A stretch of 64,000 nt of DNA from Bdellovibrionales bacterium GWA1_52_35 (GCA_001769805.1 MEPO01000027.1:75276-139275); one strand, 5' to 3'. Positions 2,176 to 56,490 are shown, counted from the stretch's first letter. Numbers and translations: made by a program. Notes: generated from the letters alone by a model not told the origin.

Positions 2176-3822
2176 TTATTTCACTTTCACACGGAAATTT
2201 TTGCGAAGATCCTCTGTGCCATCGGAGGCGTTGTCCACGATTTGCGGGGTGACAAAGATGACAAACTGGGACTTCGATCGATTATAACCCTTTGAACGGG
2301 TCAGGTTGAACAATTCTTCGGTATTCTGGGCAAACTGCCCGGTATCCGGAGTTTTATTGAATACCGTCTTCACGCGGGAAGAATTGATGGCCGCTACGGC
2401 GGCGCTTTCGTTGGATTTGACATAAAGCTTCGTGGTGACCTTGTGGGTCGCCACGATCGGCGCGCCCGAGGCGCCCTGGGATACGAGTTCATTTTCGAAC
2501 ATGTCCAGGTCCAGCTGAATGTCCTCGCTCGACCCCAGGATCATCGGTGTCGCAGAAACTTCAAGACCCACTTTTGCCGAGGCGGCAGCTGTTTGCGTAC
2601 CGCTTTGGACCAGATATGGAATTTCTGTGGTTTGATTGAGTTTTGCCTGCTGCCCGCTACGGACAATGATCGTTCCGGTGTTGAGGACCCGGGCATATCC
2701 GGCATCCTGCGCGCTCTTCAATTTCGGGAAGAGACTGGAAATGGTCGCACTGAAAGAAGCACCGGTGCCGCCGACACCACCAGTGCCGGTACCAATGGTA
2801 AATTGATCCGAACCGCTGGTGAAACCAGGGCGCCAAACAAAGCCGAAGGCTTTGCTGTAATCCTTTGAAAGCTCCACAAAATGAATGGTGACACGAACGA
2901 GCCGCTCTGCTTTCTTCGGAGGTGGAGGGCTGACCAGAATGAAATTCTGAATCATGGCTCCGGCTTTTCCCTCAAGCTTTTTTGCATCTCTTTCCACGGT
3001 CGTAAGAGGATCGGCGGGCTTGGGGTCGGGCAGATAAAGTTCCGCGACTCTTGTCGCACGCTGGGCCTTGTCCAGACTGTCTACCGTTCCTTCCAGAAAT
3101 ATTTTCCCGTTCACGACCCGGGTTTTCACATTCTCCGCGAAGACATTGATGTCTTCCTGGATTTTTCTCGCCAAAACCTGCATTGCCAGAGGTGAAAGCA
3201 CCATGAGATTGATCACCCAGGAACCGTAGGCGGAATCACTGATGACCCGAAGCACCCTTGTATAGTCACCTGGCACGAGCACTTCACCTTCAACGATTAC
3301 CTTCATGCCGACCACTCGGATTTCGACACCTTCGACATCCCGAACCAAATTGCGGATTTCTGCGGCAATCCGGTACACATTGGCTGCCGTCACCCGAACG
3401 GTGAAGATCACCTTGATCGTACCCTCCGGATCACGGACGGTCACGGTTGTGGTGCCTTCTTTCGCCGGTCGGAATACGATCTGGTATTTGCCGCCAATAT
3501 TACCCACAATCGGCACCACGACGTCCGGTTTGGCAACCGAGACCTGCAGTTTGGGATCAGGAATTTCGAAATCCAGATCAACCACTTTGTCTTCGACAAT
3601 ACTGAGCACCAGCAGTCGCCGATCGGCGGTTTTTTCTGATTCATCAGAGGTATGCCTGGAACGGCGAAATTTTTTCTTTTTGCGGGCGGACGCCGGTTTT
3701 TCATCGGCGGTTCCCGCTGCTGCACCGGGGCCCGTTGCCGAGGGGGGTGCGTCTTCAGCATAGGATGGCAGCGCTGCCATTACCAGCAGTGAAACCATGC
3801 CTGAAATCAGAAACCGCTTCAT
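2176..3822 (-). CDS. cpaC: Tad pilus outer-membrane secretin (CpaC/RcpA family)
   Basis: Signal peptide 'MKRFLISGMVSLLVMAALPSYA'. Lys/Arg-rich linker, then a secretin-type C-terminal domain (GxxxVPxL-like glycine-rich beta-rich region, '...LNTGTIIVRSGQQAKL...'). Start chosen at the internal ATG at 3822 (the ORF track starts at 3900). Confidence 0.8.
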   Translation of the reverse strand: MKRFLISGMVSLLVMAALPSYAEDAPPSATGPGAAAGTADEKPASARKKKKFRRSRHTSDESEKTADRRLLVLSIVEDKVVDLDFEIPDPKLQVSVAKPDVVVPIVGNIGGKYQIVFRPAKEGTTTVTVRDPEGTIKVIFTVRVTAANVYRIAAEIRNLVRDVEGVEIRVVGMKVIVEGEVLVPGDYTRVLRVISDSAYGSWVINLMVLSPLAMQVLARKIQEDINVFAENVKTRVVNGKIFLEGTVDSLDKAQRATRVAELYLPDPKPADPLTTVERDAKKLEGKAGAMIQNFILVSPPPPKKAERLVRVTIHFVELSKDYSKAFGFVWRPGFTSGSDQFTIGTGTGGVGGTGASFSATISSLFPKLKSAQDAGYARVLNTGTIIVRSGQQAKLNQTTEIPYLVQSGTQTAAASAKVGLEVSATPMILGSSEDIQLDLDMFENELVSQGASGAPIVATHKVTTKLYVKSNESAAVAAINSSRVKTVFNKTPDTGQFAQNTEELFNLTRSKGYNRSKSQFVIFVTPQIVDNASDGTEDLRKNFRVKVK

Positions 3823-3847
3823 TTGGATAAACATACGCTCCGTTTCA

Positions 3848-4690
3848 TCACCTTTTGGCCGGCACTCGTTGAACACGCCCGGCATCCGCACCCAGAACAT
3901 CCATCAGCATCACTCCTGGCAGATTAACCCGCTCGGTATCGTCATTATTCCGCAAAGAGAGCGTGAGCAGGTTTTCACCGCTGGCCGAGAGTAAGGCCAG
4001 CATCTGCACCTGCGCGGGCTCAACCTCAAGAGTGACGGAATTGAAAGTGAAGTCCTCCGCCAAAGGTCGGACCCGGTCCCTGCCTCCAGTGGGATCCGCT
4101 TCAATCACGCGCGGAACGTTATTCGTGACACTCCGACCGACAGCGAGCACCACAATATCCTGCAAAACTGTTTTGACGATCTTGGTATCCTTGCCGCCAC
4201 TGTCAATCACGGCAATCAGGTCGACCCGATCGCCCGGTTTGACGAGTTTGCCGATACTTGTGGTCTCACTGATACCGATCGAAACCGCGCGTCTCCCCGG
4301 CGCGACCTGGGGCGCCAGTCCGGTACGAATTCCTGGATGAGTCATTTTGTTCAATGTGATCTGCTCGCCCTTTTTGATCGGAACCATGGCGACACTTCCG
4401 GCCAGACTCTTGATGACCCGGGTCCCCTCGAGCTCAGATTCCTCCTGCTTTTCGCGTTTTGCGAACGAAACAGCGGAGGGCTCCAAGAACGCCCTGGGGA
4501 TGACCGAAAGCTCGATCATGGTCTCATCAATCGTCTCCGTATCCTTGATGTCGACCTTGGCTTTCAGGACATTGACTTCCGTTCCGAATTTCTTCTTCTG
4601 ACCCTCTTCCAGACTGCCGATGTAACTCTGCACAAAGAGCACTGCGAGAACACCCATAATGAGAGAGAGAGTCACTGCTCTGTTATTCAT
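3848..4690 (-). CDS. cpaB: Flp pilus assembly protein CpaB (RcpC) family
   Basis: N-terminal membrane anchor 'MNNRAVTLSLIMGVLAVLFVQSYIG' followed by a SAF/CpaB-like periplasmic domain. Located between the pseudopilin and secretin genes. Start set at the internal ATG at 4690. Confidence 0.7.
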   Translation of the reverse strand: MNNRAVTLSLIMGVLAVLFVQSYIGSLEEGQKKKFGTEVNVLKAKVDIKDTETIDETMIELSVIPRAFLEPSAVSFAKREKQEESELEGTRVIKSLAGSVAMVPIKKGEQITLNKMTHPGIRTGLAPQVAPGRRAVSIGISETTSIGKLVKPGDRVDLIAVIDSGGKDTKIVKTVLQDIVVLAVGRSVTNNVPRVIEADPTGGRDRVRPLAEDFTFNSVTLEVEPAQVQMLALLSASGENLLTLSLRNNDDTERVNLPGVMLMDVLGADAGRVQRVPAKR

Positions 4691-5228
4691 TGTATCTGCT
4701 CCTGCAAAGTTCAAATTTTGAAGCTTCTCCCAACCCGTAAGGACCGCTGGCCGTATAGACTTTTCTGTCCGGTGATTGAACCGGCAGGATGGGCCTGCCA
4801 TCCGCAAGAACGTTTTGCTGTGTACACATGGATACGGTACTGCGGACGCGGATCTTGGACCGTTCCGGCGGAGTCATCCGATCCTCACTGCCCTGAACGC
4901 CGGGGCGAGTAATCGAATAGTTCATGGACATAGGGGGGCTTCCATCGAGAATTTCAATCGCCGAAACTCCGATGATCATCTGGTTGTATCCGATGTTGGT
5001 GAGATCGTTTGTCCGCAGAGCCATGCCCGGGAAATAGGGACTGTTCATGGCCAAAGCAAGCGCGTGAGAGCGTGAATATTTTTGATTGACGAGCGAAATT
5101 TGAATCACCGTGTTGATCTTGATCATCAGCATGGTGAGGATCACCATCATGGGGAGCATCAGGATCAACTCCAGGACACTCTGTCCACGGGTACTCTGCT
5201 GTTTATGGCTATGCGACTTAACAGCCAT
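4683..5228 (-). CDS. TadE/TadF-like pseudopilin (Flp pilus assembly)
   Basis: N-terminal 'QQSTRGQSVLELILMLPMMVIL' matches the TadE-like motif (RGQxxVEFxL plus a hydrophobic helix). Third of three tandem paralogs. Start uncertain (5228 vs 5264). Confidence 0.6.
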   Translation of the reverse strand: MAVKSHSHKQQSTRGQSVLELILMLPMMVILTMLMIKINTVIQISLVNQKYSRSHALALAMNSPYFPGMALRTNDLTNIGYNQMIIGVSAIEILDGSPPMSMNYSITRPGVQGSEDRMTPPERSKIRVRSTVSMCTQQNVLADGRPILPVQSPDRKVYTASGPYGLGEASKFELCRSRYNE

Positions 5229-5757
5229 TATCGATGATCCCCTTTTTTGCTCCCATTTCCTCACTGCATTCCTGATAAGATGGTTCTCTCCCCAACCAGC
5301 TCTCTGAAGTTAAAGTCAGCTGATTCGCTGCATCACCTTTGGGCGTCAGGCCCGCAAACGGCAGCAGAAAAAGCTGGCTCTTGAATCTGTATCGGACTCC
5401 TTGCATCCAAACTGTATCGAAATTCGCCGGATCATAACGCGGATGGTTAATCTGGAAGCCTTTGATATCACTTCCCTCAAAGCCCTTTGCCACCCAGGGA
5501 TACCGGTCTGTGCCATTCCCTTTGTTCTTCACTGTCGCCAGGATGATTTCCTGGGCATTGGCGATCTGCTCGTCGGGTGTACTTCCTGCAGAGAGATAGG
5601 CCCGGGCCGACATGAAAGTGGCGTATTGCACATAATTACTGAACCCGAAGATCAGTCCGAGCCGCAGAAAAAACATCGAGAAACTCATGAGTAAAATCAA
5701 GACGAGCGCGAACTCCACCGTGGATTGTCCTGCCTGTCTTTCTTTTTTCAGACTCAT
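5218..5757 (-). CDS. TadE/TadF-like pseudopilin
   Basis: N-terminal 'MSLKKERQAGQSTVEFALVLILLMSF' is TadE-like. Start uncertain (5757 vs 5772). Confidence 0.6.
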   Translation of the reverse strand: MSLKKERQAGQSTVEFALVLILLMSFSMFFLRLGLIFGFSNYVQYATFMSARAYLSAGSTPDEQIANAQEIILATVKNKGNGTDRYPWVAKGFEGSDIKGFQINHPRYDPANFDTVWMQGVRYRFKSQLFLLPFAGLTPKGDAANQLTLTSESWLGREPSYQECSEEMGAKKGIIDNGC

Positions 5758-5768
5758 TTCACACCTTC

Positions 5769-6044
5769 TCACCGGGGATTGATAAACAGCCGAAAGCTAT
5801 TCATTCCGCCATCTTCCGCTCGCGGATGATTTTCGGAAGTACCCTCATCATTACTGCGACCTTTGGGATGCCCGACCTGATAGGCATTTTTGTAATCCTC
5901 CTGGATCGGTTTCAGCATTTTTTCGCCGAGCTGAAACGTCGTCAAGGAACGGACGAACGCGATGTAGGCAGAAAGCAGGATGATCAGCAGAAGGATGTAT
6001 TCGAAAGTAGCCTGACCGGCCTGTCTTCGTTTTTTCAAAACCAC
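5769..6044 (-). CDS. small TadE/pseudopilin-like protein
   Basis: N-terminal 'VLKKRRQAGQATFEYILLLIILLSAYIAF' has the same RQAGQxT(F/V)E(Y/F) motif as the two downstream paralogs. The start is probably a GTG/TTG near 6044 rather than the GTG at 6059 used by the ORF track. Confidence 0.5.
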   Translation of the reverse strand: MVLKKRRQAGQATFEYILLLIILLSAYIAFVRSLTTFQLGEKMLKPIQEDYKNAYQVGHPKGRSNDEGTSENHPRAEDGGMNSFRLFINPR

Positions 6045-6589
6045 GGAAACACCCCCCACTTCTGCAGAGGATGGTCAAACAGGACCCAGACTGCCGCAAT
6101 CGCGATCGGAATGCCGAAAGGCATCGTCAATTTGCGATCGACCACGGGAGCCTGGATTTCCAGTTCACGGATGAAAACCGAGAGAAGAAAACGGTATAGG
6201 CGGCGTGAAAAATCAGGCAATCGGCCCTTTGCGAGCAGAAGAAGCGCTGCCAGAACGCCTCCCAGCAGAATGGAAAGAATCGCTGTTTCAAAAACATATT
6301 TCGGATCCGTCCAGGCTCCGAGCGCCATCAGAAGTTTCACGTCACCGCCACCCATCACCCGAAGCGCAAAGAGCCAGCCGAAAAGCACGAGCCCGGCAAC
6401 TGCCCCCAGTAACCCCGTTCCCAGGCCACTGAAGCCAGAGACATAAAAGGAAGCGACCAATCCGAGGCAAAATACCGGCAGCGTGAACCAGTTGAAAATT
6501 CGGCCCCAGACCAGATCAGTAAACAGCGCCACCAGCGAAATCAGAGGAATCGCATAATAAATGACAAGCTCAGTTGTCCCGCCAGACAT
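6035..6589 (-). CDS. cpaA: A24-family prepilin peptidase (CpaA/TadV)
   Basis: Polytopic membrane protein, 184 aa, with acidic residues in cytoplasmic loops ('...TDLVWGRIFNW...', '...GGGDVKLLMALG...', a GGDVKL-type motif of A24 peptidases). Sits between the pilin and pseudopilin genes. Confidence 0.75.
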   Translation of the reverse strand: MSGGTTELVIYYAIPLISLVALFTDLVWGRIFNWFTLPVFCLGLVASFYVSGFSGLGTGLLGAVAGLVLFGWLFALRVMGGGDVKLLMALGAWTDPKYVFETAILSILLGGVLAALLLLAKGRLPDFSRRLYRFLLSVFIRELEIQAPVVDRKLTMPFGIPIAIAAVWVLFDHPLQKWGVFPWF

Positions 6590-6797
6590 TGACTGGAATC
6601 CTCCCGGTCTTGAGATCCTTCTCGAGTTGTGAACCCAGCTTCAGCATTCCACGGTCTGTCAATCGCATGATGATCCGAACCACGGCCATCACCGCGACAA
6701 TCGTTACGGTCAGAATGAGGATATACTCGACCGTCGTCTGACCTCTTTCGTCGTCAAACAAGGACCGAGAAAATTTTGGAATGGATGCTGTACCCAT
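6570..6797 (-). CDS. flp: Flp family type IVb/IVc pilin (Flp-2)
   Basis: '...DDERG|QTTVEYILILTVTIVAVMAVV' has the Flp G/xxxxEY processing motif followed by a hydrophobic helix. Start probably at the internal ATG at 6797 (the ORF track gives 6827). Confidence 0.7.
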   Translation of the reverse strand: MGTASIPKFSRSLFDDERGQTTVEYILILTVTIVAVMAVVRIIMRLTDRGMLKLGSQLEKDLKTGRIPVNVWRDN

Positions 6798-6862
6798 CGT
6801 TCTACCCGCAGTGGGCCCCAATCCCATTCTAGCAAATCATGAAAAAGTGTATGGAGAGCGGA

Positions 6863-7045
6863 TCAATTGATATCCTGCATGGCTTCGCCCATCTTGCCAT
6901 CCAGAACATTCAACATACCCGAAAGCTTACCGCCAAATTCCTTCTTGAATCGCAGCGCGACGAGAACCACCACGGAGAGAATGAGAATATACTCCGTCGT
7001 CGACTGTCCGCGATCGTCCCCCCACAAAGCTTTTAAAAAATTCAT
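6863..7045 (-). CDS. flp: Flp family pilin (Flp-1)
   Basis: 60 aa. 'MNFLKALWGDDRG|QSTTEYILILSVVVLVAL' has the Flp motif plus a hydrophobic helix. Good RBS (GAGGGAG) and an AT-rich promoter region upstream. Confidence 0.8.
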   Translation of the reverse strand: MNFLKALWGDDRGQSTTEYILILSVVVLVALRFKKEFGGKLSGMLNVLDGKMGEAMQDIN

Positions 7046-7211
7046 ACCCTAGCTCCCTCTCTCTCTACTTTCTGATCGGCTAAGAGCCCAAGAAGATGAG
7101 AGAAATTAAAGAATCCTCAAACCCCACAGGAATTCTACCTTAATTTTCTAACACTAAACAAAAACAGTCAAGAATAGAGTTTCTCATAAATATTTCTTTA
7201 ATTCTAAGCAC
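7046..7211 (-). promoter_or_regulatory. AT-rich intergenic region upstream of the flp pilin genes, containing the flp promoter/5'UTR
   Basis: This is the only sizeable non-coding gap (166 bp) in the 15 kb minus-strand array. On the transcribed strand it carries TTGACT-N17-GAAAAT and a purine-rich leader 'GTAGAGAGAGAGGGAG' before the ATG. Confidence 0.4.
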
Positions 7212-7961
7212 TTAAAAAAACATTACCATGCCGGTTGCGTTCTCCTCGAACTGGCACTCGCTCAGAACGGCAGTAATCTCGCGAGCAGGTTCCTGAACAC
7301 CGGAAATCTGCCTGGAAATCTGTATGGAACCGATCGTCTGTACTGCTTTTGATCCCAAACCATCGGTTTGCAGCAGTATCCAATCCCCTTTTTTAATACG
7401 ATACTCCATGATCTCCGGCTCAAGGTCCTCCGCCATTCCCAGCGCAGCCAACGGGATATTTAAGGCTGGACTCGCTTGCAGTGAAAGCGGATCGATCATT
7501 CGGGCATAAGTCCGAGGGAGGACGAGTTCAACTGGCTGTCCGTTCCGAAAGAGCCAGGCAGAACAGGATCCGACATTCGCCAGCGCCAGAAGATCGCCAT
7601 CGAGAAAAGCAGCGAGCACTGATGCGCCGCCGCGTTCATGAGTTCCTTTGTCGTGATTCATTTCCAGAATTTTGAGATTGGCGTGAATGAGTGCATTGAA
7701 CAGAACGTTTCCTGCCAATGAGAAATAGGACCGCAGAACGAAAGGCAGGGTGGCTTCCCGATCTCCGCCTTCTTTTTTCAGAAATCCCCGGACCGTCTCG
7801 CAGGCAAGCTTGGAGGCGCCCACCCCGGCGACCGGTCCCCCAAAACCATCCGCAATAACAAAAATTCCATTATCCTTCACCTCAAGCGCGTGGTCCTCCT
7901 GCAACTCGCGCCGGCCCCGATCCGAAAACATTGCGATTGCGTGCACAGGAAGTCTTCTCAT
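7212..7961 (-). CDS. PP2C-family Ser/Thr protein phosphatase
   Basis: Motifs 'RELQEDHAL', 'FVIADGFGG' and 'ILLQTDGLG' match PPM/PP2C metal-binding motifs. 249 aa. 4-bp overlap with the upstream FHA gene. Confidence 0.8.
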   Translation of the reverse strand: MRRLPVHAIAMFSDRGRRELQEDHALEVKDNGIFVIADGFGGPVAGVGASKLACETVRGFLKKEGGDREATLPFVLRSYFSLAGNVLFNALIHANLKILEMNHDKGTHERGGASVLAAFLDGDLLALANVGSCSAWLFRNGQPVELVLPRTYARMIDPLSLQASPALNIPLAALGMAEDLEPEIMEYRIKKGDWILLQTDGLGSKAVQTIGSIQISRQISGVQEPAREITAVLSECQFEENATGMVMFF

Positions 7962-10285
7962 TCCAGGTCACCTTTTTTCAGATAACGCGACAGCTTGCGC
8001 TTGGAGCGCTCATAGTAAATATCATCGACCGGTGCGACACTCAGGCATTCTTTGAATTTGTTCTTGGCAGTATCAAAATCGCTATAGCTTTCAGCAAGAA
8101 CGGCTTCGGTATAGATCACCTTCGCGCGATCGTGGAGCACGGCCCGCAGACGCTTCATTCCCAGATAGCCGGCCGGATGTTCCGGATCGACAAGCGTCGC
8201 TTTCCGGTAAAGCTGATATGCCCGCGCCAGATCACCCGATTCCTCCAGTTGTTTCGCTTCCTGCAGGAAGGGCTCCCGTACCGCCGCAATCGCGGCTTGC
8301 GCCCGCCTCATCAGAGCTGCGCGCGCTGGGTGCAGCTTCGGATCAGAGGCCCCCATTTCAGCCAGCTCTTTGAGAATATTGATGGCCTGCCGGTACTTGC
8401 CGGCCTTGAAACGGGCTTTCGCTTCCGCATAGACGCCCCAGGCATGCTTGTTGATTTGTGTGCGGGTCTGTTTTTGTATTTCCTTGATACGCTCGGACTC
8501 TTCCCATTCGCCGATCTCTTTGCGCCAGGCTCCCACCTCTGCGTTGTCAGGATCAATTTCCAAAATTCCCGGGAAGAGTTCGCTGGCTTTCCGATACTGC
8601 TTCTTCTCCATCAAGTCGCGGACCTCATCGGCCAGCTCGGCAACCCGGGCCTTGATCCGCGCTTCCTCTTCCTTCCTCTTCTTCTCTTCTTCCATGGCTT
8701 CACTGCGCCGCTTTCCCTGCTCTGCATAGTGCTTCAGCTCGATAGAATTATCGTAGTCCGAAACCAGTGAAAACAGCTGACTCAATTCGTAGAGAGCTTT
8801 ATCGAAATCCCCATTGGTGTAGTATTGGAAAGCCAAGGCGTGTTTTGCTTTTACAAATTTCTGTTCCTCGGGTTTCAACCGTTCAAAAGTTCTCAAGCTG
8901 CTTTTATCGAGAACCCCTGGACTCGGCTTGGACTGCGGTTTTCGCTGCAATTTGGGCGCATCCCCTTCTTCCATTCCCCACCAGAGCGCCAGCAGGCCGA
9001 GGGCTCCGACCAGGAATTTTTGTCGGGCAGGAAGTTTTGCGAAGAGACTCTTGCCCTTGTTTCCACCCATTCCGGCAATCCCGGTGACGCCGGTCATTCC
9101 CGGAATATGAGGACTCGGAGCGGAGGCGGAATTCCCGCCCGCTCCCACGCCCGGCAGAATATTGATCCGCGATTCCTTGGCATCCCAGGCATTGGACTCC
9201 CCACCGGAAGGAACAGGACTTGACTGGATCAGACTTGAAATTTCCGGAACAGGGAAAGAATAGCTTTTGTTCTCACTTTCAACGGGGAGCGCTGATTGGA
9301 CCTGCCGTGTATAATCAGCACTTTTGATAAGAAAATTGAAAATCACATCACCAATCTGGATCTGATCTTCGCCCGTGAGTTCCTGCTCACTAATTTTCAC
9401 ACCATTGACGAAAGTACCATTGGCTGAAGCAAGATCCTTGATCACATAACTCAAGCCAGCTTTGCGTATGATCGCGTTCTTGCGGGAAGCTCGTTTATCA
9501 TTCAATACGATGTCACAGGTTTTCGCACGGCCGATCGAAATTTCATCGCCACTGAAAACGTATTCTTCGACGTTCGCACTGCCCGGCTTGAAAATCAGGC
9601 GGACTGCAATTTTGCCGATCGGCGCGACTTTGGTCGCGGCATCACTTTCGGCAATTTCCATGAATTTAGTGGCCAGCGGCATAGGATCATCCAGCGCGGC
9701 TGGCAGCGCGGCGGGTTTTTCAGGATCGGACATGATAGGATGAACCGGTGCAGGAGTAGGGGCCGGCTCTGACTCTTCCCCCTGCGGCATTTCAATCGGA
9801 CTTTCGTTAATCGGTAAAACAGTTGCCGGCGCGGCATCACTCAAATCAGACAGGGGTTCTTCATATTGATCCGGCCCAGCCTTGGGTACGGACGGTACCA
9901 GAGCCGGCTTGATCGGAATGACAGGCACTTCCTGAGCGATCGGTGCAGCAGGAGCTGCGCGCAAGGGATTTGCCTCTGCTGGTGGAATCGAAACCTTCAC
10001 CAGGTAAGGACCCAGGGCTATGACATCGCCCTCGACCAGCATGCCGCTCGCGCAAAGCTTTCCGTTGATGCTCAAAGGAGCATATTCACTTTTCTTTTCG
10101 ACCTGTATGCCTTCAGGAGTCTGGGTAAATACGACATGACGTCGCGAAATAGCCCGATCTTCAAGCCGAATCACGCAGTCTTCGCCTCGGCCTACGACAA
10201 GCGGCCTGCTGTTGGGCGGGAGCTGGCAGGATTTGATCACCTCGCCATTTTTCAGAAAGGTGAGAAGTGGAGCAGCACCCATCAA
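7958..10285 (-). CDS. membrane protein with two N-terminal FHA domains and a C-terminal TPR-repeat domain
   Basis: FHA-1 '...LVVGRGEDCVIRLEDRAISRRHVVF...'. FHA-2 '...ISIGRAKTCDIVLNDKRASRKNAIIRKAGLSYVIKDLASANGTFVNG'. Pro-rich linkers, one TM helix 'FLVGALGLLALWWGM', then ~330 aa of TPR-like helical repeats. Confidence 0.75.
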   Translation of the reverse strand: MMGAAPLLTFLKNGEVIKSCQLPPNSRPLVVGRGEDCVIRLEDRAISRRHVVFTQTPEGIQVEKKSEYAPLSINGKLCASGMLVEGDVIALGPYLVKVSIPPAEANPLRAAPAAPIAQEVPVIPIKPALVPSVPKAGPDQYEEPLSDLSDAAPATVLPINESPIEMPQGEESEPAPTPAPVHPIMSDPEKPAALPAALDDPMPLATKFMEIAESDAATKVAPIGKIAVRLIFKPGSANVEEYVFSGDEISIGRAKTCDIVLNDKRASRKNAIIRKAGLSYVIKDLASANGTFVNGVKISEQELTGEDQIQIGDVIFNFLIKSADYTRQVQSALPVESENKSYSFPVPEISSLIQSSPVPSGGESNAWDAKESRINILPGVGAGGNSASAPSPHIPGMTGVTGIAGMGGNKGKSLFAKLPARQKFLVGALGLLALWWGMEEGDAPKLQRKPQSKPSPGVLDKSSLRTFERLKPEEQKFVKAKHALAFQYYTNGDFDKALYELSQLFSLVSDYDNSIELKHYAEQGKRRSEAMEEEKKRKEEEARIKARVAELADEVRDLMEKKQYRKASELFPGILEIDPDNAEVGAWRKEIGEWEESERIKEIQKQTRTQINKHAWGVYAEAKARFKAGKYRQAINILKELAEMGASDPKLHPARAALMRRAQAAIAAVREPFLQEAKQLEESGDLARAYQLYRKATLVDPEHPAGYLGMKRLRAVLHDRAKVIYTEAVLAESYSDFDTAKNKFKECLSVAPVDDIYYERSKRKLSRYLKKGDLE

Positions 10286-11283
10286 CGCACCCCTCCCTTC
10301 ATTTCTTTTCTGACGGAATCAAGCTGTTCTTTAGCAACGATATAGGACTCATCACTCTGTGCCCGGTGCAAGAGGCGCAGCACCGACTCAAAATGCCCGC
10401 GGGCATCTTTCAGCTTGCCGGCACTTTGTGACTTCTTGCCCACTTCCAGGTGAAACTTCACCTCTTGCGTGATTTCGCGATTACAGTTTTCAAGATAGAG
10501 TGTCGCAAGCCGGTGCCCCGGTGCGATCTGAAGAACGGTTTCGAATTGAACCCGCGCCCGCAAGTAATTTTTTTCCCGGAACTCCCGGAACCCGCTCCGG
10601 TAGAACATTTCAGCCGTTCTATTGACCGCGGCTTCAGCTCCTTTTGGAAGATACGAAGCAAGGTCTCTTTGGGCCTCAAGCTTCTCCGGCTTTTTCTGAC
10701 GAGGAGCCTGTTCATCCTTGCCCAGGAAAAGCACCAGCATCAAAACCGCTCCCGCTCCAAGATAAAGCTTGGTGCGGTTTCCGCCACTTCCGGCCGCACC
10801 CCTGACCCCAGCACCGCCCCCCAGAAGGGATCCGCTCGAATCAATGCCGCGCGCGCGTTTTCGCTGGGCCTCGAAAGCTGCTTGTTCTGCTTCGATCTGC
10901 TTTATATCCCGAGGAGGTGCGATCAGCATCATTGTGCCCGCTTCAGCGGCCACGAACTCGAAAGTCGTTTCTCCGATTTTGAAAGTATCCTTCAGCTTCA
11001 GGCGCCCGCCTCTGGTGGGCGCGCCGTTCAACAGCATTCCATTTGCACTGGCAAGATCCCGGATATTCCAAGTATCACCCGTGCCAACAATTTCGGCATG
11101 AATCCGCGATGCTTTCAGATCGGAAATTATGATGTCGTTTTCATCACCGCGACCAATCGTGGCACGACTTCGCAGAAGAACATAGACGCACCCATAATCA
11201 GGACCCTGGATCACCTTGAGCCGGGCCAGCTCACCTTGCTGTTTCGGAAGGGTGCTTTGTTTGAAACGGATTGCTGTGCCCAT
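10282..11283 (-). CDS. FHA-domain membrane protein with C-terminal TPR-like domain
   Basis: FHA '...ATIGRGDENDIIISDLKASRIHAEIVGTGDTWNIRDLASANGMLLNG'. TM helix 'LYLGAGAVLMLVLFLG'. C-terminal TPR-like region. 4-bp overlaps on both sides. Confidence 0.75.
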   Translation of the reverse strand: MGTAIRFKQSTLPKQQGELARLKVIQGPDYGCVYVLLRSRATIGRGDENDIIISDLKASRIHAEIVGTGDTWNIRDLASANGMLLNGAPTRGGRLKLKDTFKIGETTFEFVAAEAGTMMLIAPPRDIKQIEAEQAAFEAQRKRARGIDSSGSLLGGGAGVRGAAGSGGNRTKLYLGAGAVLMLVLFLGKDEQAPRQKKPEKLEAQRDLASYLPKGAEAAVNRTAEMFYRSGFREFREKNYLRARVQFETVLQIAPGHRLATLYLENCNREITQEVKFHLEVGKKSQSAGKLKDARGHFESVLRLLHRAQSDESYIVAKEQLDSVRKEMKGGVR

Positions 11284-12941
11284 CAGCTCTCCGATCTCAC
11301 GAATGTGATCACGAAACCCTTGATCTGGCCTCCCGGCATGGCGAATGCCGCAGCGTTGACTCTGTACGCGATGCCTTCAAATTCATAATCCTCGGAAATC
11401 GTTTCTCCAGAGCTTGCCGTCACCCGGTCAATCAGATCCCCGGCAAAGGAATCAAAGGCTTGATCCCGCGCCACGGCCGAAATGGTCTGTCCCACGGCCG
11501 TGTCGCCCCGAATTCCGCTGATTTCCTGAAAGATCGTGTTCAGATAGACAATCCGGCGTTCATGATCGCAGAGAACCAGGCCGAATTTCGACAACTCTCC
11601 CATCATTCGAACGGGGCCGGCAAAAATCTCCGTTGAAATGGCACCTTCCACAGACTGACTGTCCATCGTGGAGGCGCGAGGAATACGCTGCAGAGCTGAA
11701 TCGATCAGCTGCCAGAGTTGATTCGTGTCTTCCACTTTGTACTCATGCGTGACTTGGGCGATGTCGCCCTTCAAACCTTTTTCGAGATCTTCAGTCAGTA
11801 TCCGATAAGGTCGCAAGGTGAGCCGCCGGACAATTGCGAAGATGAGGATCGCGAATAGGCCTGTGAATATGAAAGTCTTTGAATAGATGACGCTGATTTC
11901 TCCGGTATCGAGTGTCACGAGTCCGGTATCGATGGACACGATCGACATTGCCGCCACCACATTCCGTCCTGCTCGCGAGCTGAAGACTTTGACCGGTTCG
12001 ATCGCGGTGATCGTTGATTCATCGAGTTCGGCCGCATATCCGGTCTCCCGACCCCTGTCGAACTGTTCTTTCATTTTCCGGGCAAAACGCGACTCGACAC
12101 CGGAAGTCAAAATATTTCCCGCTTTCGAAGGCGGCGCCAGTACGCGGTTATCGAGATCCACCAGCAGCGCCAGCTTCACTCCCTCAGCATCTTCCGCAAG
12201 TCCGATTTCAGTTTTAGAACTCGCACCAGCAGCCACGAATTGGACGTTCTGTTCCGCGATCTGCCGGGCCATGAAACGAGCTCGGCTGCTTGCTTCCTTT
12301 ACGACCGTCATCCGGCCGGACTCAATCAGCGGATAGACCGAAATAACCAGATTTCCCAGAGTCAGCACCGCGAGCAGTCCAAAGATCATCAGATGCCACT
12401 CGTGCTTCAGGTTCAGGGAATAGAATATCGGCATGATCTGCCGTTCAAAATACCAGAGCAATTTTTCCTTGAGGTCCTTGGGGGGCGTATTTGCATTCAT
12501 GGCATCAATCGCCATTTGCGATGAGCCACCTTGGGATCCGATACCGAATTCCGAAACTCCGGCAGGCAGTGATTTCGAAGATCCGACCGAAGCCAGAGCG
12601 ATCACGTTTCCTAAGCCTGCGACGTCTGGCGCTCTTCTCGGTGTTTTCGCTTTGGGATCGCTGATTTCGAAGACGTATTCTCCGACGCTGATCCGGTCGC
12701 CGAGATTCACTGTTTTTGTTTTCGCTAGGATTCCATTGATGAACGTACCGTTTGAACTGCCCTGGTCCTGGACAATGATTTCGTCCTTGCTGACCGAAAG
12801 CACACAGTGGTGCTTCGAAACCCGCGCAGATGGCAATACGACGACATTGTCGCCATGGCGACCTATCGAGGTACTTCCGTTTTCCTGCAGCACGTAACTG
12901 CTACCCGAATTGGGGCCAGCCACGATGGTCAGCTTATACAT
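11283..12941 (-). CDS. FHA-domain membrane protein with periplasmic loop and C-terminal PAS-like domain
   Basis: FHA 'TSIGRHGDNVVVLPSARVSKHHCVLSVSKDEIIVQDQGSSNGTFING'. Two TM helices ('WHLMIFGLLAVLTLGNLVISVYPLI', 'IFTGLFAILIFAIVRRL') flank a ~150-aa loop. C-terminal PAS-like segment '...GLVLCDHERRIVYLNTIFQEISGI...'. Confidence 0.7.
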   Translation of the reverse strand: MYKLTIVAGPNSGSSYVLQENGSTSIGRHGDNVVVLPSARVSKHHCVLSVSKDEIIVQDQGSSNGTFINGILAKTKTVNLGDRISVGEYVFEISDPKAKTPRRAPDVAGLGNVIALASVGSSKSLPAGVSEFGIGSQGGSSQMAIDAMNANTPPKDLKEKLLWYFERQIMPIFYSLNLKHEWHLMIFGLLAVLTLGNLVISVYPLIESGRMTVVKEASSRARFMARQIAEQNVQFVAAGASSKTEIGLAEDAEGVKLALLVDLDNRVLAPPSKAGNILTSGVESRFARKMKEQFDRGRETGYAAELDESTITAIEPVKVFSSRAGRNVVAAMSIVSIDTGLVTLDTGEISVIYSKTFIFTGLFAILIFAIVRRLTLRPYRILTEDLEKGLKGDIAQVTHEYKVEDTNQLWQLIDSALQRIPRASTMDSQSVEGAISTEIFAGPVRMMGELSKFGLVLCDHERRIVYLNTIFQEISGIRGDTAVGQTISAVARDQAFDSFAGDLIDRVTASSGETISEDYEFEGIAYRVNAAAFAMPGGQIKGFVITFVRSES

Positions 12942-13318
12942 AATTCGTCCCCTGCGCGTAGGGTGCAGCGTTCAATCGTTCCGTCCGGAAGCTCCAAGGT
13001 ATCGTCGGCTTGCCGATCAAAGAGCGGAAGAATCCGCCATGGCCTGACTCCGGGATGTACCGAGCTGATCTTCCAGGACGTTTTTCCCTGCGCAGTGACC
13101 TCCTTTCGAATAAATACGACATCAATCCGCATCGTCATGAACCAGGTGTGAATGTTGTTGCACTCCGGGAACAACATTCCTGCACCGTTTTCGAGGGAGG
13201 ATTTTCCGATCAGTCCACGAAGACGATCGAAAAAATGCTCCGCCTCATAACACTTATCGGCAATAAGGGCTTGATTTGTTAGGGACTGCACCTTTTTCAA
13301 TTGAGCATGGATTTTCAT
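12929..13318 (-). CDS. DUF192 (COG1430) domain protein
   Basis: 129 aa. 'RLRGLIGKSSLENGAGMLFPECNNIHTWFMTMRIDVVFI' matches the DUF192 core (RGLMxR...GMLF...M...iDv.Fi). Overlaps neighbouring genes by a few bp, so it is in the same operon. Confidence 0.6.
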   Translation of the reverse strand: MKIHAQLKKVQSLTNQALIADKCYEAEHFFDRLRGLIGKSSLENGAGMLFPECNNIHTWFMTMRIDVVFIRKEVTAQGKTSWKISSVHPGVRPWRILPLFDRQADDTLELPDGTIERCTLRAGDELCIS

Positions 13319-14031
13319 TCGGGTTTTCCACCCTGGGGGATAAAGGCCAGCGGCTGATTTTCTTGAATTTTCCTGATCAACTCCGAACGACCCGGCTCTT
13401 CGAGTGTCAATATTTCAACGCCCATTCCTTTCGGCAAAATATCCGCTCTGGGGCGAACCCATCGTACAACGCCGGTTCCAGAGAGCCGAATTGACGGATC
13501 ACTCAAATGGAGTTCAAGCCGGACTACTTCGTCCACGGTTGCTTCAACTATTCCAGGAACGAATATGCCGCCTCGCCCGACACATCGCCAGTCGATAGCC
13601 GTTTTTTGAAAAGCAAGCGTCTGCGGCTCCATCTGCTCAACTGCAGACCATCGCTCCGCCTGTGGCAACAGCAGGTTCGCGATCGTACTGATCACTTTTC
13701 GCATACTGAAGGGTTTCGGGAAAATGGCATCCGCACCCATATCGTAAAGTGACTCGGTGGTTACATCGGCAAAGCCGGAGATCAGCGAGAAAACCGATTC
13801 AGAGGTGCGCTCCCGTACTTTCCGGAGCAGTTCCGTACCATCCCCTCCCGACATGCGGACGTCTGAAATAATGACCTCTGGCGAAGACTTTAAGAATAGT
13901 TCAAAACCTTCGGTGCCATTCGCAGCTGCGAGGCTCTTGCTGCCACGTGCAGACAGGGCTTCGCAGATCAGTTCACGAATCAATGGCTCATCATCGACCA
14001 CAAGAATGGTCTTGCCCTCAAGAGGATTCAT
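13315..14031 (-). CDS. response regulator with N-terminal receiver and C-terminal PilZ-like domain
   Basis: REC 'KTILVVDDEPLIREL...EVIISDVRMSGGDGTELL...FPKPF'. C-terminal beta-rich domain ending 'GVVRWVRPRADILPKGMGVEIL' resembles PilZ. The canonical RxxxR/DxSxxG c-di-GMP motifs are not obvious. Confidence 0.65.
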   Translation of the reverse strand: MNPLEGKTILVVDDEPLIRELICEALSARGSKSLAAANGTEGFELFLKSSPEVIISDVRMSGGDGTELLRKVRERTSESVFSLISGFADVTTESLYDMGADAIFPKPFSMRKVISTIANLLLPQAERWSAVEQMEPQTLAFQKTAIDWRCVGRGGIFVPGIVEATVDEVVRLELHLSDPSIRLSGTGVVRWVRPRADILPKGMGVEILTLEEPGRSELIRKIQENQPLAFIPQGGKPE

Positions 14032-14819
14032 CAGGCCGCCTCCCTGACGTGAGTGTAAGCCAAAGGCATCCGGAGCAGAAAACAGGTCAATTCATCGCTC
14101 TTCAGCAGTAATTCTCCTTGATGGGCTTCCATGATTTGTTTTGAAATCGAAAGGCCCAGTCCTGTGCCCTGGGCCTTTGTGGTAAAGTGCGGCTCCATGA
14201 CCCTGCTGCGAATCGCCTCGGGAATTGCCGGACCACTGTTTGCAATCTGGAGCTCCAGACTGTTCTCATTTCGCGCTATTTCAATCGATATCCATTTTTT
14301 TCCGGAACGGCTGGTTTCATTTCCGATGGCTTCGATCGCCTCGACTGCGTTGAGCAGAAGATTGAGAAGCACTTGCGTGATCTGCGCGGGCCTGCAATCA
14401 ATCTTGAATTCCTGTTCCAGCGGTTCAATTCTGAGTTCGATCTGAAGTTGCAGCAATTTCGAACGCACCAGGCTGATTGTCATGCCTAGAATTTCGTCCA
14501 GACTGGCGCGCACAAAGGACTCTTCCTGAGTGTTGCGACTGAGCGCCTTAACACCCAGGACCACTTTTTCGATGTGGCGGGCAGTCAACTCGATCTGCTC
14601 GAGCGACTGCTCCAGCTGTTGCGGGTCCAGCTCACCCGTCTTCAAAAGTCCACGGAGATGAGTCGTTCTGGCTAAGATCACCGTCAGCGGACTGCAGACC
14701 TCATGCACAAGTCCGGCAGAGAGTTCTCCCAAAGCGCGCATTTTTTCGAAATGCTCCTGGTTGTTTTCCGCTTCGGAATACTGACTGGCCCAATTCCGGA
14801 TGTTTTTCCAGATACTCAT
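14031..14819 (-). CDS. cytoplasmic sensor histidine kinase (HisKA + HATPase_c, no obvious sensor/TM)
   Basis: H-box 'LSAGLVHEVCSPLTVI'. N-box 'LLNLLLNAVEAI'. G-boxes 'TGLGLSISKQIMEAHQGEL'. 1-bp stop/start overlap with the REC-PilZ gene. Confidence 0.8.
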   Translation of the reverse strand: MSIWKNIRNWASQYSEAENNQEHFEKMRALGELSAGLVHEVCSPLTVILARTTHLRGLLKTGELDPQQLEQSLEQIELTARHIEKVVLGVKALSRNTQEESFVRASLDEILGMTISLVRSKLLQLQIELRIEPLEQEFKIDCRPAQITQVLLNLLLNAVEAIEAIGNETSRSGKKWISIEIARNENSLELQIANSGPAIPEAIRSRVMEPHFTTKAQGTGLGLSISKQIMEAHQGELLLKSDELTCFLLRMPLAYTHVREAA

Positions 14820-14878
14820 TCAATTACGTATCGGTACTCAACCTAAAAATTTATAGGAAAAACAAAAGCTAAGCTGAA

Positions 14879-15841
14879 TCAGGATCGTGTGAATGCCACG
14901 AAGGCCCCACCGATCAGGCCGGCATTATTGTGAAGACTGGAAACTTTCAGATCAGGCATCAGGTCCACCCCAACTCTGCGCCTGACAAGGAGTTTCTCAA
15001 GATGCGTTTTGGTTTTTTTCATAAAGAGATCAGCGGTTTGGGCGAAGCTGCCCGTTAAAATTACGAGTTCCGGAGCGTAAACCACGGCATAATTGTGAAT
15101 AGCCACGGCCATCAGGAATGAATACTCATCGAACATCGCTCTGGCATTCAAATCGCCCGATCTGGCCATGTCCGCAATTTCCTTGGCATCCAACTTTTCG
15201 TTGCCCAATTTCACGCGGGCTCGGCGGGTGAAATTTCGTCCCGAAAGATAAGCTTCGGCGCAACCATGATTCCCGCAGCCACAAGGCGCGGATTCGTCAT
15301 TGTACTGCAGAATCAGATGCCCCGCCTCGGGATGGAGATCCCGCCCGGCGCGAACCAATTCACCGTTGACGATAATTCCGGTTCCCAAGCCAGTGCCAAG
15401 AGTCAAAATCATGGCGTTTTGGGATTTGCGGGCAGCCCCGACCCAATGTTCGGCCAGGATCGCTGCGGCCGCATCATTTTCCATCACGACTGGAAGTTTC
15501 AGTTTTCGGGAAAGCAATTGTGCGAGAGGCGTCTTGCCCCAGGCGCCTTCAGGTCCCGAAAAATTCGTCGGGTCCAGCAAAACTCCTGTTTTCGGTTCCA
15601 AAGGACCTGCCGAAGCGATCCCGATGCGTTTGATCTTCGGATACTCGGCAATCATTTCCTGGCCCAAGTCAGCCAGTTGACGGATGACTGCCTGCTTTCC
15701 CTGCCTGAAGACAACCGGAACACGCTTGCACTTGAGCACTTTCCCGCTCGAATCCACCACTCCGACCTCGACCTTGGTTCCTCCAAGATCGTAAGCCAAA
15801 ACATAAGGAATTTTCGTCAACAGACCTTTCTGACTCATCAA
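14879..15841 (-). CDS. ROK-family glucokinase
   Basis: N-terminal 'LAYDLGGTKVEVGVVD' (ATPase fold) and the ROK zinc motif 'CGCGNHGCAEAYLSG'. Confidence 0.8.
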   Translation of the reverse strand: MMSQKGLLTKIPYVLAYDLGGTKVEVGVVDSSGKVLKCKRVPVVFRQGKQAVIRQLADLGQEMIAEYPKIKRIGIASAGPLEPKTGVLLDPTNFSGPEGAWGKTPLAQLLSRKLKLPVVMENDAAAAILAEHWVGAARKSQNAMILTLGTGLGTGIIVNGELVRAGRDLHPEAGHLILQYNDESAPCGCGNHGCAEAYLSGRNFTRRARVKLGNEKLDAKEIADMARSGDLNARAMFDEYSFLMAVAIHNYAVVYAPELVILTGSFAQTADLFMKKTKTHLEKLLVRRRVGVDLMPDLKVSSLHNNAGLIGGAFVAFTRS

Positions 15842-33644: not shown

Positions 33645-35195
33645 TTACAACCCTACTTGCCGAAGTGATTTTTGAACCTGAGTACAGGTCACTGCATCAT
33701 AAAGCTGCCGGCAGGCCTTCACCGTTGACGTGCTGAAGGTCTTGAAATTCGAACTTTCAGACATGAAATGTGTCAGGACGAGAAAGAACAGTCTTTCAGC
33801 CTTGGCTTTAGTGATTGCCTCGGACACTAAATACATCGCGTGCCCCGGAACTGTGGAATTGATGTGCACCCAGCAATTGTCGTTAGCTGAGCCGCAGGAT
33901 TTCTGCTTCGGGAACATCTGATTGACGTGTGCCGGATAAGGAAGGTGCTTCATGCAGGTCCCCATGTAATCCCGCTCCGCACAGGCAGAGTGCACCCCGG
34001 GATGAGCAAGATCACGGATGCCGTTTGATCCGGATTTCAGGAAAAGTTTCTTTCCGATAATCCAATCTGAGTCGTTTGCGATCATCTTTCCGAAAAAATC
34101 CGAGAAAGCCTCATTGAGCGCGCCGGATTGATCCATATAGATCAGCTTGGCCGTTTCACTCGTCAGACCATGAGTCATTTCATGACCTGCGACATCCAAG
34201 GCGCGGGTGAAGTCACCAAAATTAACACCGTCTCCATCTCCGTAGGCCATGATTTTGAGTTCAGAACTCCAGAACGCGTTATCAAACTGTTTGCCGATAT
34301 GAACTACGCTGGTGGAAGCCCCTCCGCGCCCATCATAACTATCGCGACCATGCTTGCGCATGTAGTAGTTCAAGACGGCTTTGGAATTCCCAGCAGCCTG
34401 ACGGGCAGACTGATCAGCCTTGGCTGAAATCACGCCGTTCGCGACCACTCTTGGACAGGCTTTCAGGCTCAAGCTTTGCGGGCGGCCTACCTCATCAAGC
34501 ACCTGGCAACCGTGAGAATCAATACCGTTCAGCCGGGTGGTCAAGACATTGACTGGGGCAATTTCGATATGCCGGGACATCACTGAAAGCACATCTCCCG
34601 TATTCGCATCAATCAAGATGTCCTGGCCGACGCTGGTCTCTCCGCCGTCAAAGCCCACCCAATAGATCAAACGTGCCGTGTGGTCCTCAAAGGACGGGAA
34701 AATTTTGAGGATCGGCACCGCGCCAAGAATAGTATCACCGCTTTGTGCGCCCATCGCGGAGCGAGCAATCGCAACGGCTTCGCCGGCACTGAGCGCGGGC
34801 TGGGTATCCAGGTCGAAGGAAGCGATTTCGGCGGTGATCTCAGTTTTATCACTCGCCCGGTGATGAAAAACTCTGGCTCCGACAACTTCGATGCCTTTGA
34901 AGAATTGCTGAAATTTCGTGGTTTCGAGTTCCGGGTCCGTTACGCGATCGGTGATGCTCAGAGCATTCGCCACACTCTGGTGAAGCATCGCCCGTACAGC
35001 TGTGTCCGCGAGGACTGAGCGATGGGCGTCCTGGAGCCTTGCAAATGAATCCAAAGCCGCCGGATTGAATTTCGTGAAGGAAAAGACCGCGTCGTCTGCT
35101 GTTTCCTTGGCCCAAGCCTGTGGTACCAATGAAGAAAGTGCCGAAGTGCCTAAGATCGCGACCCAGATGAATAAGCTTCTCTTGAGATTCTTCAC
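33645..35195 (-). CDS. secreted M4 (thermolysin-family) zinc metallopeptidase
   Basis: Signal peptide 'MKNLKRSLFIWVAILGTSALSSLVPQAWA'. Zinc motif 'VAGHEMTHGLT' followed by 'GALNEAFSDFFG' (third ligand Glu), diagnostic of M4. Confidence 0.85.
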   Translation of the reverse strand: MKNLKRSLFIWVAILGTSALSSLVPQAWAKETADDAVFSFTKFNPAALDSFARLQDAHRSVLADTAVRAMLHQSVANALSITDRVTDPELETTKFQQFFKGIEVVGARVFHHRASDKTEITAEIASFDLDTQPALSAGEAVAIARSAMGAQSGDTILGAVPILKIFPSFEDHTARLIYWVGFDGGETSVGQDILIDANTGDVLSVMSRHIEIAPVNVLTTRLNGIDSHGCQVLDEVGRPQSLSLKACPRVVANGVISAKADQSARQAAGNSKAVLNYYMRKHGRDSYDGRGGASTSVVHIGKQFDNAFWSSELKIMAYGDGDGVNFGDFTRALDVAGHEMTHGLTSETAKLIYMDQSGALNEAFSDFFGKMIANDSDWIIGKKLFLKSGSNGIRDLAHPGVHSACAERDYMGTCMKHLPYPAHVNQMFPKQKSCGSANDNCWVHINSTVPGHAMYLVSEAITKAKAERLFFLVLTHFMSESSNFKTFSTSTVKACRQLYDAVTCTQVQKSLRQVGL

Positions 35196-51597: not shown

Positions 51598-51733
51598 GGG
51601 ATCCCCTCTTGATAACTTGTCTTAGTGTGTCGACTTTTTCACTTTAAGAAATGAACTATTTTTTTCAAACTTTTTGTCAAGAACATGACACAGCACAATA
51701 CTCAAGGTTACAGAGCGTCATGACGAAACATAG

Positions 51734-52711: not shown

Positions 52712-52755
52712 GTCTTTCACCATCGTTTTGTGTATGTTAGGATCCCAGACGAACC

Positions 52756-53184: not shown

Positions 53185-53295
53185 GCCCACTTCGGTCAGT
53201 AATTCCTTAATGTTGGGCAAATTTTTCCCTGTTAAGTACGCCGTCCCTCTCTCCGATAGAGCTATTGAAGAATCACATTATCCAGGAGGGATACC

Positions 53296-54372: not shown

Positions 54373-54424
54373 ATTGAAGGCCCTAAATGAGAAACTTTTG
54401 CTCGCTAATTATTGCCCAGCAAGA

Positions 54425-56418: not shown

Positions 56419-56490
56419 TTTAAGCCACTTCTCCTGCCCATAGAGTGTAAGTGAAAAATTTCCGTGAATCAAATGTTAGCGCACGAAATA

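Follow-up and report, generated by a model that had tools for sequence, protein, structure and literature searches.

A predicted FHA- and PP2C-domain module within the Tad pilus operon of Bdellovibrionota, encoded apart from any Hanks-type kinase

A 64,000-nucleotide stretch of the genome of Bdellovibrionales bacterium GWA1_52_35 (GCA_001769805.1 MEPO01000027.1:75276-139275), called the window below, carries four minus-strand genes, D, C, B and A, that occupy positions 7212-12941 without remainder (Table 1). The genes encode three membrane-anchored proteins with four FHA domains between them (D, C and B) and, next to these, a PP2C-like protein (A). This composition had been described in a first-pass annotation of the same DNA and is borne out by Pfam, by hydropathy and by a structural model of A. 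The start and stop codons of the four genes overlap by 1-13 nucleotides (nt), as do those of the upstream genes for a DUF192 protein, a response regulator with a PilZ domain (REC-PilZ) and a histidine kinase. Overlaps across all seven genes, from the histidine kinase to A, indicate one predicted transcription unit with translational coupling. Judged by its gene neighbourhood, the module is a predicted part of a Tad pilus operon and not an isolated signalling operon. The DNA comes from a groundwater (Rifle) metagenome, and the contig is also present within NCBI assembly GCA_001769475.1. In profile searches of a 5.8-billion-protein set, the closest homologues among the matches listed are from metagenome-assembled genomes (MAGs) of Bdellovibrionota throughout.

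All three FHA proteins score above the Pfam gathering cut-off for FHA (PF00498, 20.7 bits). B reaches 90.3 bits over two stretches (E 1e-25), D reaches 54.0 bits (E 2e-14) and C reaches 48.9 bits (E 9e-13). B also matches TPR_19, TPR_14 and TPR_2; C has a weak TPR_2 match (E 0.004), and PAS_4 and PAS matches in D fall slightly under the cut-off. Hydropathy identifies one hydrophobic helix in B, one in C and two in D, at positions conserved in all orthologues; the peak in C is present in 69 of 69 family members. The net positive charge N-terminal to the transmembrane (TM) helix of B and C places FHA inside and TPR outside, so both proteins are predicted to join a cytoplasmic FHA part to a periplasmic TPR part through a single TM helix. 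The second TM helix of D has a strongly basic C-terminal flank. An AlphaFold2 model of D (predicted local distance difference test score, pLDDT, 82) consists of the FHA domain, a linker, a long TM helix, an alpha/beta domain (aa ~233-338), and a second TM helix that continues into HAMP-like helices and a PAS domain. Since PAS follows the second TM helix, it shares the cytoplasmic side of the membrane with FHA. The earlier proposal that FHA is coupled to a TPR or PAS domain across the membrane therefore holds for B and C, but not for D. Instead, D is laid out like a transmembrane sensor, with FHA placed where an output enzyme usually stands, and it is likely the sensor of the module.

The FHA domains differ in how well they preserve the phosphothreonine (pThr) pocket. 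Two of the four are canonical (C and D), one is near-canonical (the second domain of B, B-FHA2) and one is atypical (B-FHA1). In C and D the Gly-Arg, Ser-x-x-His and Asn-Gly elements are invariant or at least 90% conserved over 64-69 orthologues; for C this applies to the GR, SxxH and S-x-N-G positions in 69 sequences. In an alignment of 33 homologues, B-FHA2 has invariant R253, S267 and N289, and its His position is occupied by N, H or S. C, D and B-FHA2 thus keep an invariant Arg/Ser/Asn triad that is predicted to bind phosphothreonine. The nearest solved FHA relatives are the pThr readers GarA, OdhI, FhaA, EmbR, Rv1747 and DgcB, not YscD. B is related to EmbR, GarA, FhaA and DgcB, and the best solved relatives of C are OdhI, GarA and DgcB.

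Protein A matches Pfam PP2C_2 with 28.1 bits (cut-off 24). A profile of its family matches the bacterial PP2C tPphA over the full length (E 7e-21), and PppA, the phosphatase of the type VI secretion system (T6SS), was matched too. The AlphaFold2 model of A (pLDDT 92.3) aligns in Foldseek with tPphA (E 4e-18, TM-score 0.79-0.85) and also superposes on MspP, PppA and PstP with TM-scores of about 0.8; Stp1 was matched as well. The predicted structure confirms a PP2C fold, a beta-sandwich flanked by helices. The window copy carries R18, E22-D23, D38-GFGG, D200 and E240-N241. In a 44-sequence alignment the Asp residues of motifs I and II are nearly invariant (D23 in 42, D38 in all 44), the motif VIII Asp (D200) is present in 30, the motif XI Asp in 25 with Glu in 5 more, and the phosphate-binding Arg in 24. 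Of 56 orthologues, 34 keep the complete DDD[D/E] set of metal ligands, the window copy among them.

The most conserved part of A is a family-specific insert at amino acids (aa) 66-90, G-D-x-E-A-T-L-P-F-V-L-R-x-Y-F-S-L-A-G-N. Its T71 is present in 56 of 56 orthologues and F74 in 55 of 56, and the model gives residues 72-76 a pLDDT below 50. Many FHA domains prefer pT-x-x-hydrophobic, which T-x-x-F fits. T71-x-x-F74 is accordingly a candidate FHA epitope and not a finding. T218 of B, invariant in 64 of 64 sequences, is a candidate phospho-site for FHA binding; it lies in a variable linker about 8 residues before FHA2. Both T71 and T218 are isolated invariant threonines in flexible or variable segments. 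Invariant threonines in TadZA and RcpC were unconvincing as epitopes, as all of them lie within well-conserved folded segments. The FHA pockets of C and D stay canonical in lineages whose A has lost metal ligands. A is thus not the sole reason for pocket conservation and would have a function beyond catalysis.

Table 1. Predicted features of the module, of the surrounding Tad operon and of other parts of the window (aa, amino acids; TM, transmembrane helix).
Feature	Position (nt)	Strand	Size or residues	Description or basis
Protein D	11283-12941	-	552 aa	FHA-TM-periplasmic domain-TM-HAMP-like-PAS
D, FHA	12941-12660	-	aa 1-94	followed by disordered linker
D, TM1	12392-12336	-	aa 184-202
D, periplasmic domain		-	aa ~205-340	alpha/beta, PDC/Cache-like; ~150 aa between helices
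D, TM2	11888-11832	-	aa 352-370	followed by HAMP-like helices
D, PAS	11630-11295	-	aa 438-549	cytoplasmic
Protein C	10282-11283	-	333 aa	FHA-TM-TPR-like
C, FHA	11217-10945	-	aa 23-113	followed by Gly-rich linker
C, TM	10767-10723	-	aa 173-187
C, TPR-like		-	aa ~200-333	periplasmic, helical
Protein B	7958-10285	-	775 aa	FHA-FHA-TM-TPR
B, FHA1	10264-9986	-	aa ~8-100	followed by Pro/Ala-rich linker
B, T218	9632-9634	-	T218	candidate phospho-site
B, FHA2	9613-9326	-	aa ~225-320	followed by linker
B, TM	9016-8972	-	aa 424-438
B, coiled coil and TPR		-	aa ~470-775	periplasmic
Protein A	7212-7961	-	249 aa	PP2C/PPM fold, cytoplasmic
A, T71 codon	7749-7751	-	T71	candidate FHA epitope
DUF192 (COG1430) protein	12929-13318	-	129 aa	Pfam DUF192, E 3e-13
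Response regulator with C-terminal PilZ domain	13315-14031	-		Pfam; translationally coupled to DUF192
Soluble histidine kinase (HisKA + HATPase_c)	14031-14819	-		Pfam; NCBIfam AtoS/ZraS-like
Flp-type prepilin	6863-7045	-	60 aa	G/QSTTEY motif; sequence and hydropathy; gene call in public contig
Flp-type prepilin	6570-6827	-	85 aa	Pfam Class_IIIsignal / Flp1_like, weak; conserved in 57 loci
TadV/CpaA prepilin peptidase	6035-6589	-		Pfam Peptidase_A24, E 7e-18
TadE/F-like minor pilin	5218-5772	-		conserved synteny, gene call
TadE/F-like minor pilin	4683-5264	-		conserved synteny, gene call
RcpC/CpaB	3848-4690	-		precomputed Pfam RcpC
RcpA/CpaC secretin	2176-3900	-		precomputed Pfam Secretin
TadZ-TadA (CpaE-CpaF) fusion ATPase	16-2160	-		precomputed Pfam CbiA/ParA + T2SSE; NCBIfam TadA family + MinD
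ABC1 protein	35479-37677			Pfam
Thermolysin-type M4 peptidase	33645-35195	-		with PepSY propeptide
M1 aminopeptidase	38482-40728	-
GYF-domain-TM-periplasmic protein	54820-56472			only NCBIfam match, GYF region of GltJ

The association with Tad genes extends far beyond the window. A degenerate-pattern scan with the B family over 185,579 species genomes yielded 80 loci, 78 of them from Bdellovibrionota-type MAGs. Their gene content was determined by BLAST of the window proteins against all open reading frames (ORFs) of the loci, and the resulting counts are limited chiefly by contig ends. Across the 78 Bdellovibrionota loci the order TadC-DUF192-D-C-B-A-Flp-TadV-TadE-TadE-RcpC-RcpA-TadZA-TadB is conserved together with gene orientation. 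C and B are present in 71 loci each, A and D in 68 each, DUF192 in 64 and TadZA in 45, with identities to the window proteins from 57% down to about 30%. In more than 45 loci the gene next upstream of DUF192 encodes TadC, identified as a T2SSF paralogue with about 25% identity to TadB. After TadZA, related loci continue with TadB and then an RHS/YD-repeat protein, and the same two genes lie directly outside the left edge of the window. The exceptions are the window and its two nearest relatives, in which the histidine kinase and REC-PilZ genes sit in the TadC position. The window and its flanks contain no TadC (no second T2SSF gene), suggesting that TadC has moved elsewhere in this lineage. 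No TadV homologue was detected in loci L051, L054 and L056-L066, which form the most divergent clade among the relatives. This synteny strongly backs the functional link to the Tad machine that had been proposed, and it argues that the FHA/PP2C block was already integral to the ancestral Tad operon of Bdellovibrionota and is not a chance neighbour.

The same evidence bears on the idea that the four genes belong to a pathway with no tie to the Tad genes other than position, which would control, for example, Glt-like gliding or, through REC-PilZ, output of cyclic di-GMP (c-di-GMP). B does resemble GltG of the Myxococcus xanthus gliding motor, the window encodes, at 50.9-56.5 kb, a GYF-TM protein that resembles GltJ and lies next to PilZ and GGDEF genes, and the histidine kinase and REC-PilZ genes are predicted to be co-transcribed with the module. 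However, the block lies between TadC and Flp/TadV in more than 45 loci and stays with TadC even in the split locus of Bdellovibrio bacteriovorus (PMC6561027). The histidine kinase and REC-PilZ are lineage-specific, the former with a homologue in only 2 related loci and the latter not conserved in them, and the operon has no agl or glt genes. We consider this explanation very unlikely.

No partner Ser/Thr kinase is encoded near the module. As the first-pass annotation stated, the Hanks catalytic-loop motif is absent from the six reading frames of the window, and no Pkinase domain was found in Pfam scans of its larger genes or in its precomputed Pfam annotation. A kinase just outside the window had been named as evidence that would speak against that account; the precomputed Pfam annotation of the public contig shows no Pkinase in the 10 kb left of the window or in the 5.4 kb right of it. 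The ABC1 protein, confirmed by Pfam, belongs to a different class, as had been stated; lying 22 kb off and not conserved with the module, it was rejected as the partner kinase. The soluble histidine kinase was likewise rejected as the missing Ser/Thr kinase in view of its canonical H-box, its cognate REC partner and its restriction to 2 related loci. No Hanks kinase came up when every ORF of the 78 loci (1.27 Mb in total) was searched with phmmer, using a Hanks kinase domain as query, and with a motif scan; in Chloroflexota locus L083, unrelated to these and serving as a positive control, three kinases were matched. The absence thus holds for the whole family and not for the window alone.

Gene content also decides against a pathway with its own cluster kinase, of either the PpkA-PppA-Fha1 type of T6SS or the RsbU/RsbW type of partner switch. 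A PP2C-fold protein does adjoin FHA proteins here, and the Pseudomonas aeruginosa PppA structurally matches A; the T6SS of P. aeruginosa is similarly an envelope machine gated by an FHA protein and a PP2C. But its cluster includes a kinase and one soluble FHA protein, whereas the window has no such kinase, three membrane-anchored FHA proteins and a Tad pilus. Neither the window nor the related loci contain a Hanks kinase, a STAS domain or an RsbW-type kinase, and T6SS genes are absent. Such an identity was rejected and appears extremely improbable.

A comparable arrangement has been described in B. bacteriovorus HD100, where Bd0470 (TadC) heads an operon with Bd0471-Bd0475 (PMC6561027). In that operon Bd0473 carries FHA, Bd0474 joins a pair of cytoplasmic FHA domains through a TM helix to a TPR domain outside the cytoplasm, and Bd0475 was listed as hypothetical (PMC6561027). 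The shared order is TadC, two genes, a single-FHA protein, a protein of FHA-FHA-TM-TPR layout and a small cytoplasmic protein. This order is found in more than 45 related loci, and in the window the histidine kinase and REC-PilZ genes take the TadC slot. Bd0474 and B share the same topology, with FHA cytoplasmic and TPR extracytoplasmic, and both HD100 and the window are linked to a Tad system with a TadZ-TadA fusion ATPase. The window module therefore appears to be the counterpart of Bd0471-Bd0475, and the counterpart of the hypothetical Bd0475 has a predicted PP2C fold. In HD100 the block stands apart from the main Tad operon, whereas it is contiguous with it in the window and most related MAGs; the contiguity in most lineages makes the HD100 split look derived. 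The HD100 tad loci also lack TadV and borrow PilD (10.64898/2026.07.08.737194), in contrast to the window, where TadV is encoded in the Tad operon.

A transposon mutant of Bd0474 still attaches to prey but no longer kills or rounds it (PMC6561027). The TPR domain of Bd0474 binds that of Bd0075 in the BACTH two-hybrid assay, and AlphaFold-Multimer predicted a contact between Bd0473 and Bd0475 (PMC12034629), with which the T71-x-x-F74 candidate is consistent. According to a 2026 preprint, prolonged attachment and invasion require the Tad machine; the preprint places FHA, TPR, PAS, PilZ and histidine kinase genes beside tad genes, "notably tadC", with no analysis of them and no mention of a phosphatase (10.64898/2026.07.08.737194).

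A second parallel is the Kil system of M. xanthus, a Tad-derived predator machine that, as here, includes several FHA or FHA+TPR proteins (KilD, MXAN_4648, MXAN_4649 and MXAN_3104). The Tad-like Kil clusters are rich in FHA proteins, and KilD (MXAN_3108, FHA+TPR) is required for killing and forms foci at prey contacts even without the Tad core (PMC8460266). MXAN_4648 and MXAN_4649 (FHA) adjoin KilH, the Bd0470 orthologue (PMC8460266 supplements), a neighbourhood like that of the TadC-linked block in Bdellovibrionota; the likeness is one of shared domains. The systems differ in other respects. The Kil ATPase KilF has an N-terminal FHA domain, whereas the window ATPase is a TadZ fusion in which Pfam and NCBIfam detect no FHA domain. 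KilD is annotated as cytoplasmic, unlike the membrane-anchored FHA proteins of the window, and the gene lists of the Kil clusters contain nothing PP2C-like.

Taken together, we think it probable, with appreciable room for doubt, that the module, together with the upstream DUF192 gene, is a conserved accessory part of the Bdellovibrionota Tad (Kil-like) machine: an inner-membrane and periplasmic platform whose FHA domains read pThr written by a trans-encoded kinase, with A as a binding subunit throughout and as an eraser where it is intact. Gene content, topology, synteny, residue conservation and folds come from the analysis itself; the partners of the module, its dependence on phosphorylation and the direction of signalling are what we infer. 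In this model B and C would act as connectors and D as sensor of a platform at the prey-contact pole, where it would nucleate or license assembly of the Tad machine and its activity. Prey-contact signals may in this way be passed to the pilus motor, as had been suggested. The periplasmic TPR domains would bind other envelope components, as the Bd0474 TPR domain binds that of Bd0075. The canonical pockets of C and D, and that of B-FHA2, would dock on pThr epitopes written by a Hanks-type kinase encoded elsewhere, possibly on the T71-x-x-F74 loop of A and T218 of B. A copy of A with an intact metal centre, such as that in the window, would reset phosphorylation; a decayed A would be mainly a binding partner. 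The histidine kinase and REC-PilZ pair joined to the operon could provide an extra input in this lineage. A trans-encoded Hanks kinase implicated in predation, Bd3148, is known in Bdellovibrio (PMC6733907). Since the kinase is never encoded nearby, the search should aim at trans-encoded kinases of the Bd3148 type.

Several observations weigh against this model, above all against its dependence on phosphorylation. With no cis-encoded kinase in the window, its flanks or the 1.27 Mb of related loci, the case for phospho-dependence is carried by the conservation of pocket residues, and here the expectation of intact pThr pockets holds for C and D and, apart from its variable His, for B-FHA2, but not for B-FHA1. 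The latter has invariant G32, R33, S47 and H50 in 33 homologues, but a K-K-S-E-F/Y segment replaces the Asn. The best NCBIfam family for B is GltG (NF033760; 79.7 bits, E 2e-22, cut-off 650), and the modelled partners of the GltG FHA domains are not phosphoproteins (PMC11761067). A has the PP2C fold, but the conclusion that PP2C implies reversible phosphorylation is weakened by the state of its active site. The window copy has E240 in place of the Asp of motif XI. The third-metal Asp (tPphA D119, GDSR motif) is found in none of the 44 A sequences, in which A, S, G, V, C or T stands at this position. One or both of the C-terminal metal-binding Asp residues are gone in about 20 of 56 orthologues. 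These losses are scattered over the family, including the nearest relatives of the window (L005 and L006), and thus arose repeatedly and independently. Moreover, the orthology with Bd0471-Bd0475 is deduced from published domain maps and gene order, and the predatory lifestyle of this uncultured organism is assumed.

Many of these points would be expected if the FHA domains were plain adaptors, as in SctD/YscD or the modelled GltG, and no kinase were needed. The FHA proteins would then be a phospho-independent scaffold that ties the TadB/TadC/TadZA platform to periplasmic TPR connectors, with A as a pseudo-phosphatase subunit. The lack of a cis kinase and of the B-FHA1 Asn, the GltG match, the repeated loss of catalytic Asp residues from A while its gene and the T71 loop are retained, and the placement of the module genes among the structural genes of the operon all agree with a scaffold. 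In addition, Pfam Yop-YscD_cpl scores equal the FHA scores in height. On the other hand, three of the FHA domains show no change in the Arg/Ser/Asn triad across about 65-70 orthologues that share 30-50% identity, the closest solved relatives are readers of pThr and not YscD, and 34 of 56 A proteins keep the full set of binuclear-metal ligands. Neither a TIGR02500 score above the cut-off nor the periplasmic ring-building domains, which together would indicate SctD/YscD membership, was found. The GltG match of B covers its two FHA domains only, with TagH and SctD scoring lower. GltG resembles B in having an N-terminal FHA domain, a second FHA domain, one TM helix and a long periplasmic part (PMC11761067). 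However, the periplasmic part of GltG has a TonB-C-like domain whereas that of B has a coiled coil and TPR, the score of B is far from the GltG cut-off, and B is encoded in a Tad operon and not in a glt/agl operon. A phospho-independent scaffold is therefore rather unlikely in our judgement.

In a more specific reading, A would not be mainly an eraser but a conserved phospho-epitope carrier or a phosphate-binding pseudo-phosphatase whose E-A-T71-L-P-F74 loop is read by a membrane FHA domain. We regard this as a doubtful proposal, with a clearly lower chance of being right. If it were true, the five-gene block would by itself make up a checkpoint for assembly of the predatory Tad machine. One promiscuous trans kinase would suffice, or none where the interaction became phospho-independent, and a kinase-less FHA/pseudo-PP2C switch would exist inside a type IV filament machine.

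The combination of a conserved Thr in a flexible segment with an FHA domain is also seen in GarA/OdhI and DgcB, the closest solved FHA relatives in sequence and fold. These are soluble enzyme regulators, unlike the window FHA domains, which are tethered to the inner membrane and encoded in a pilus operon. DgcB is an orphan FHA protein of Bdellovibrio without an identified kinase (PMC6733907).

The arrangement itself has already been flagged in B. bacteriovorus (Bd0470-Bd0475) and is paralleled by the Myxococcus Kil and Glt FHA proteins. New are the integration of the module into the operon throughout the phylum, the consistent lack of a cis-encoded kinase, and the PP2C fold of A with its repeated catalytic decay and invariant Thr loop. 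The sensor-like build of D and the GltG-like relationship of B are new as well. FHA proteins of these loci are, in both Myxococcus and Bdellovibrio, named but uncharacterised suspects for coupling prey contact to the assembly and firing of the Tad/Kil machine in predators. The findings name residues for mutation in the genetically tractable B. bacteriovorus.

The DUF192 gene is the first of the conserved five-gene block and lies directly upstream of D in 64 related loci. Its product has neither a signal peptide nor a TM helix. A sequence search gave no solved relative, and no description of a role for DUF192 in a Tad system was found in the literature looked at. In the public gene call B has 774 aa, with the ATG at 10282 as start. 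Scans of 6500-15400 for promoters and terminators gave counts not above those of shuffled sequence. The gene for the 60-aa Flp prepilin, in tandem with the 85-aa Flp gene, is shorter than the usual ORF-length cut-offs.

The RHS/YD-repeat protein follows TadB in more than 40 loci, and the copy directly left of the window has 561 aa (DUF6531, TEN_YD-shell; locus L001, 13063-14748). It may be a pilus-associated toxin or a tip component of the predatory Tad system. Elsewhere in the window, the GYF-domain protein, whose architecture recalls that of Bd0075, the TPR partner of Bd0474 with an N-terminal domain described as GYF-like, belongs to a group of genes at 50950-56472 that continues after it with two PilZ proteins, a PAS-GGDEF protein and a response regulator. 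The M4 peptidase and the M1 aminopeptidase could both plausibly serve a predatory or proteolytic way of life. At its right edge the window ends in a truncated SMC ORF.

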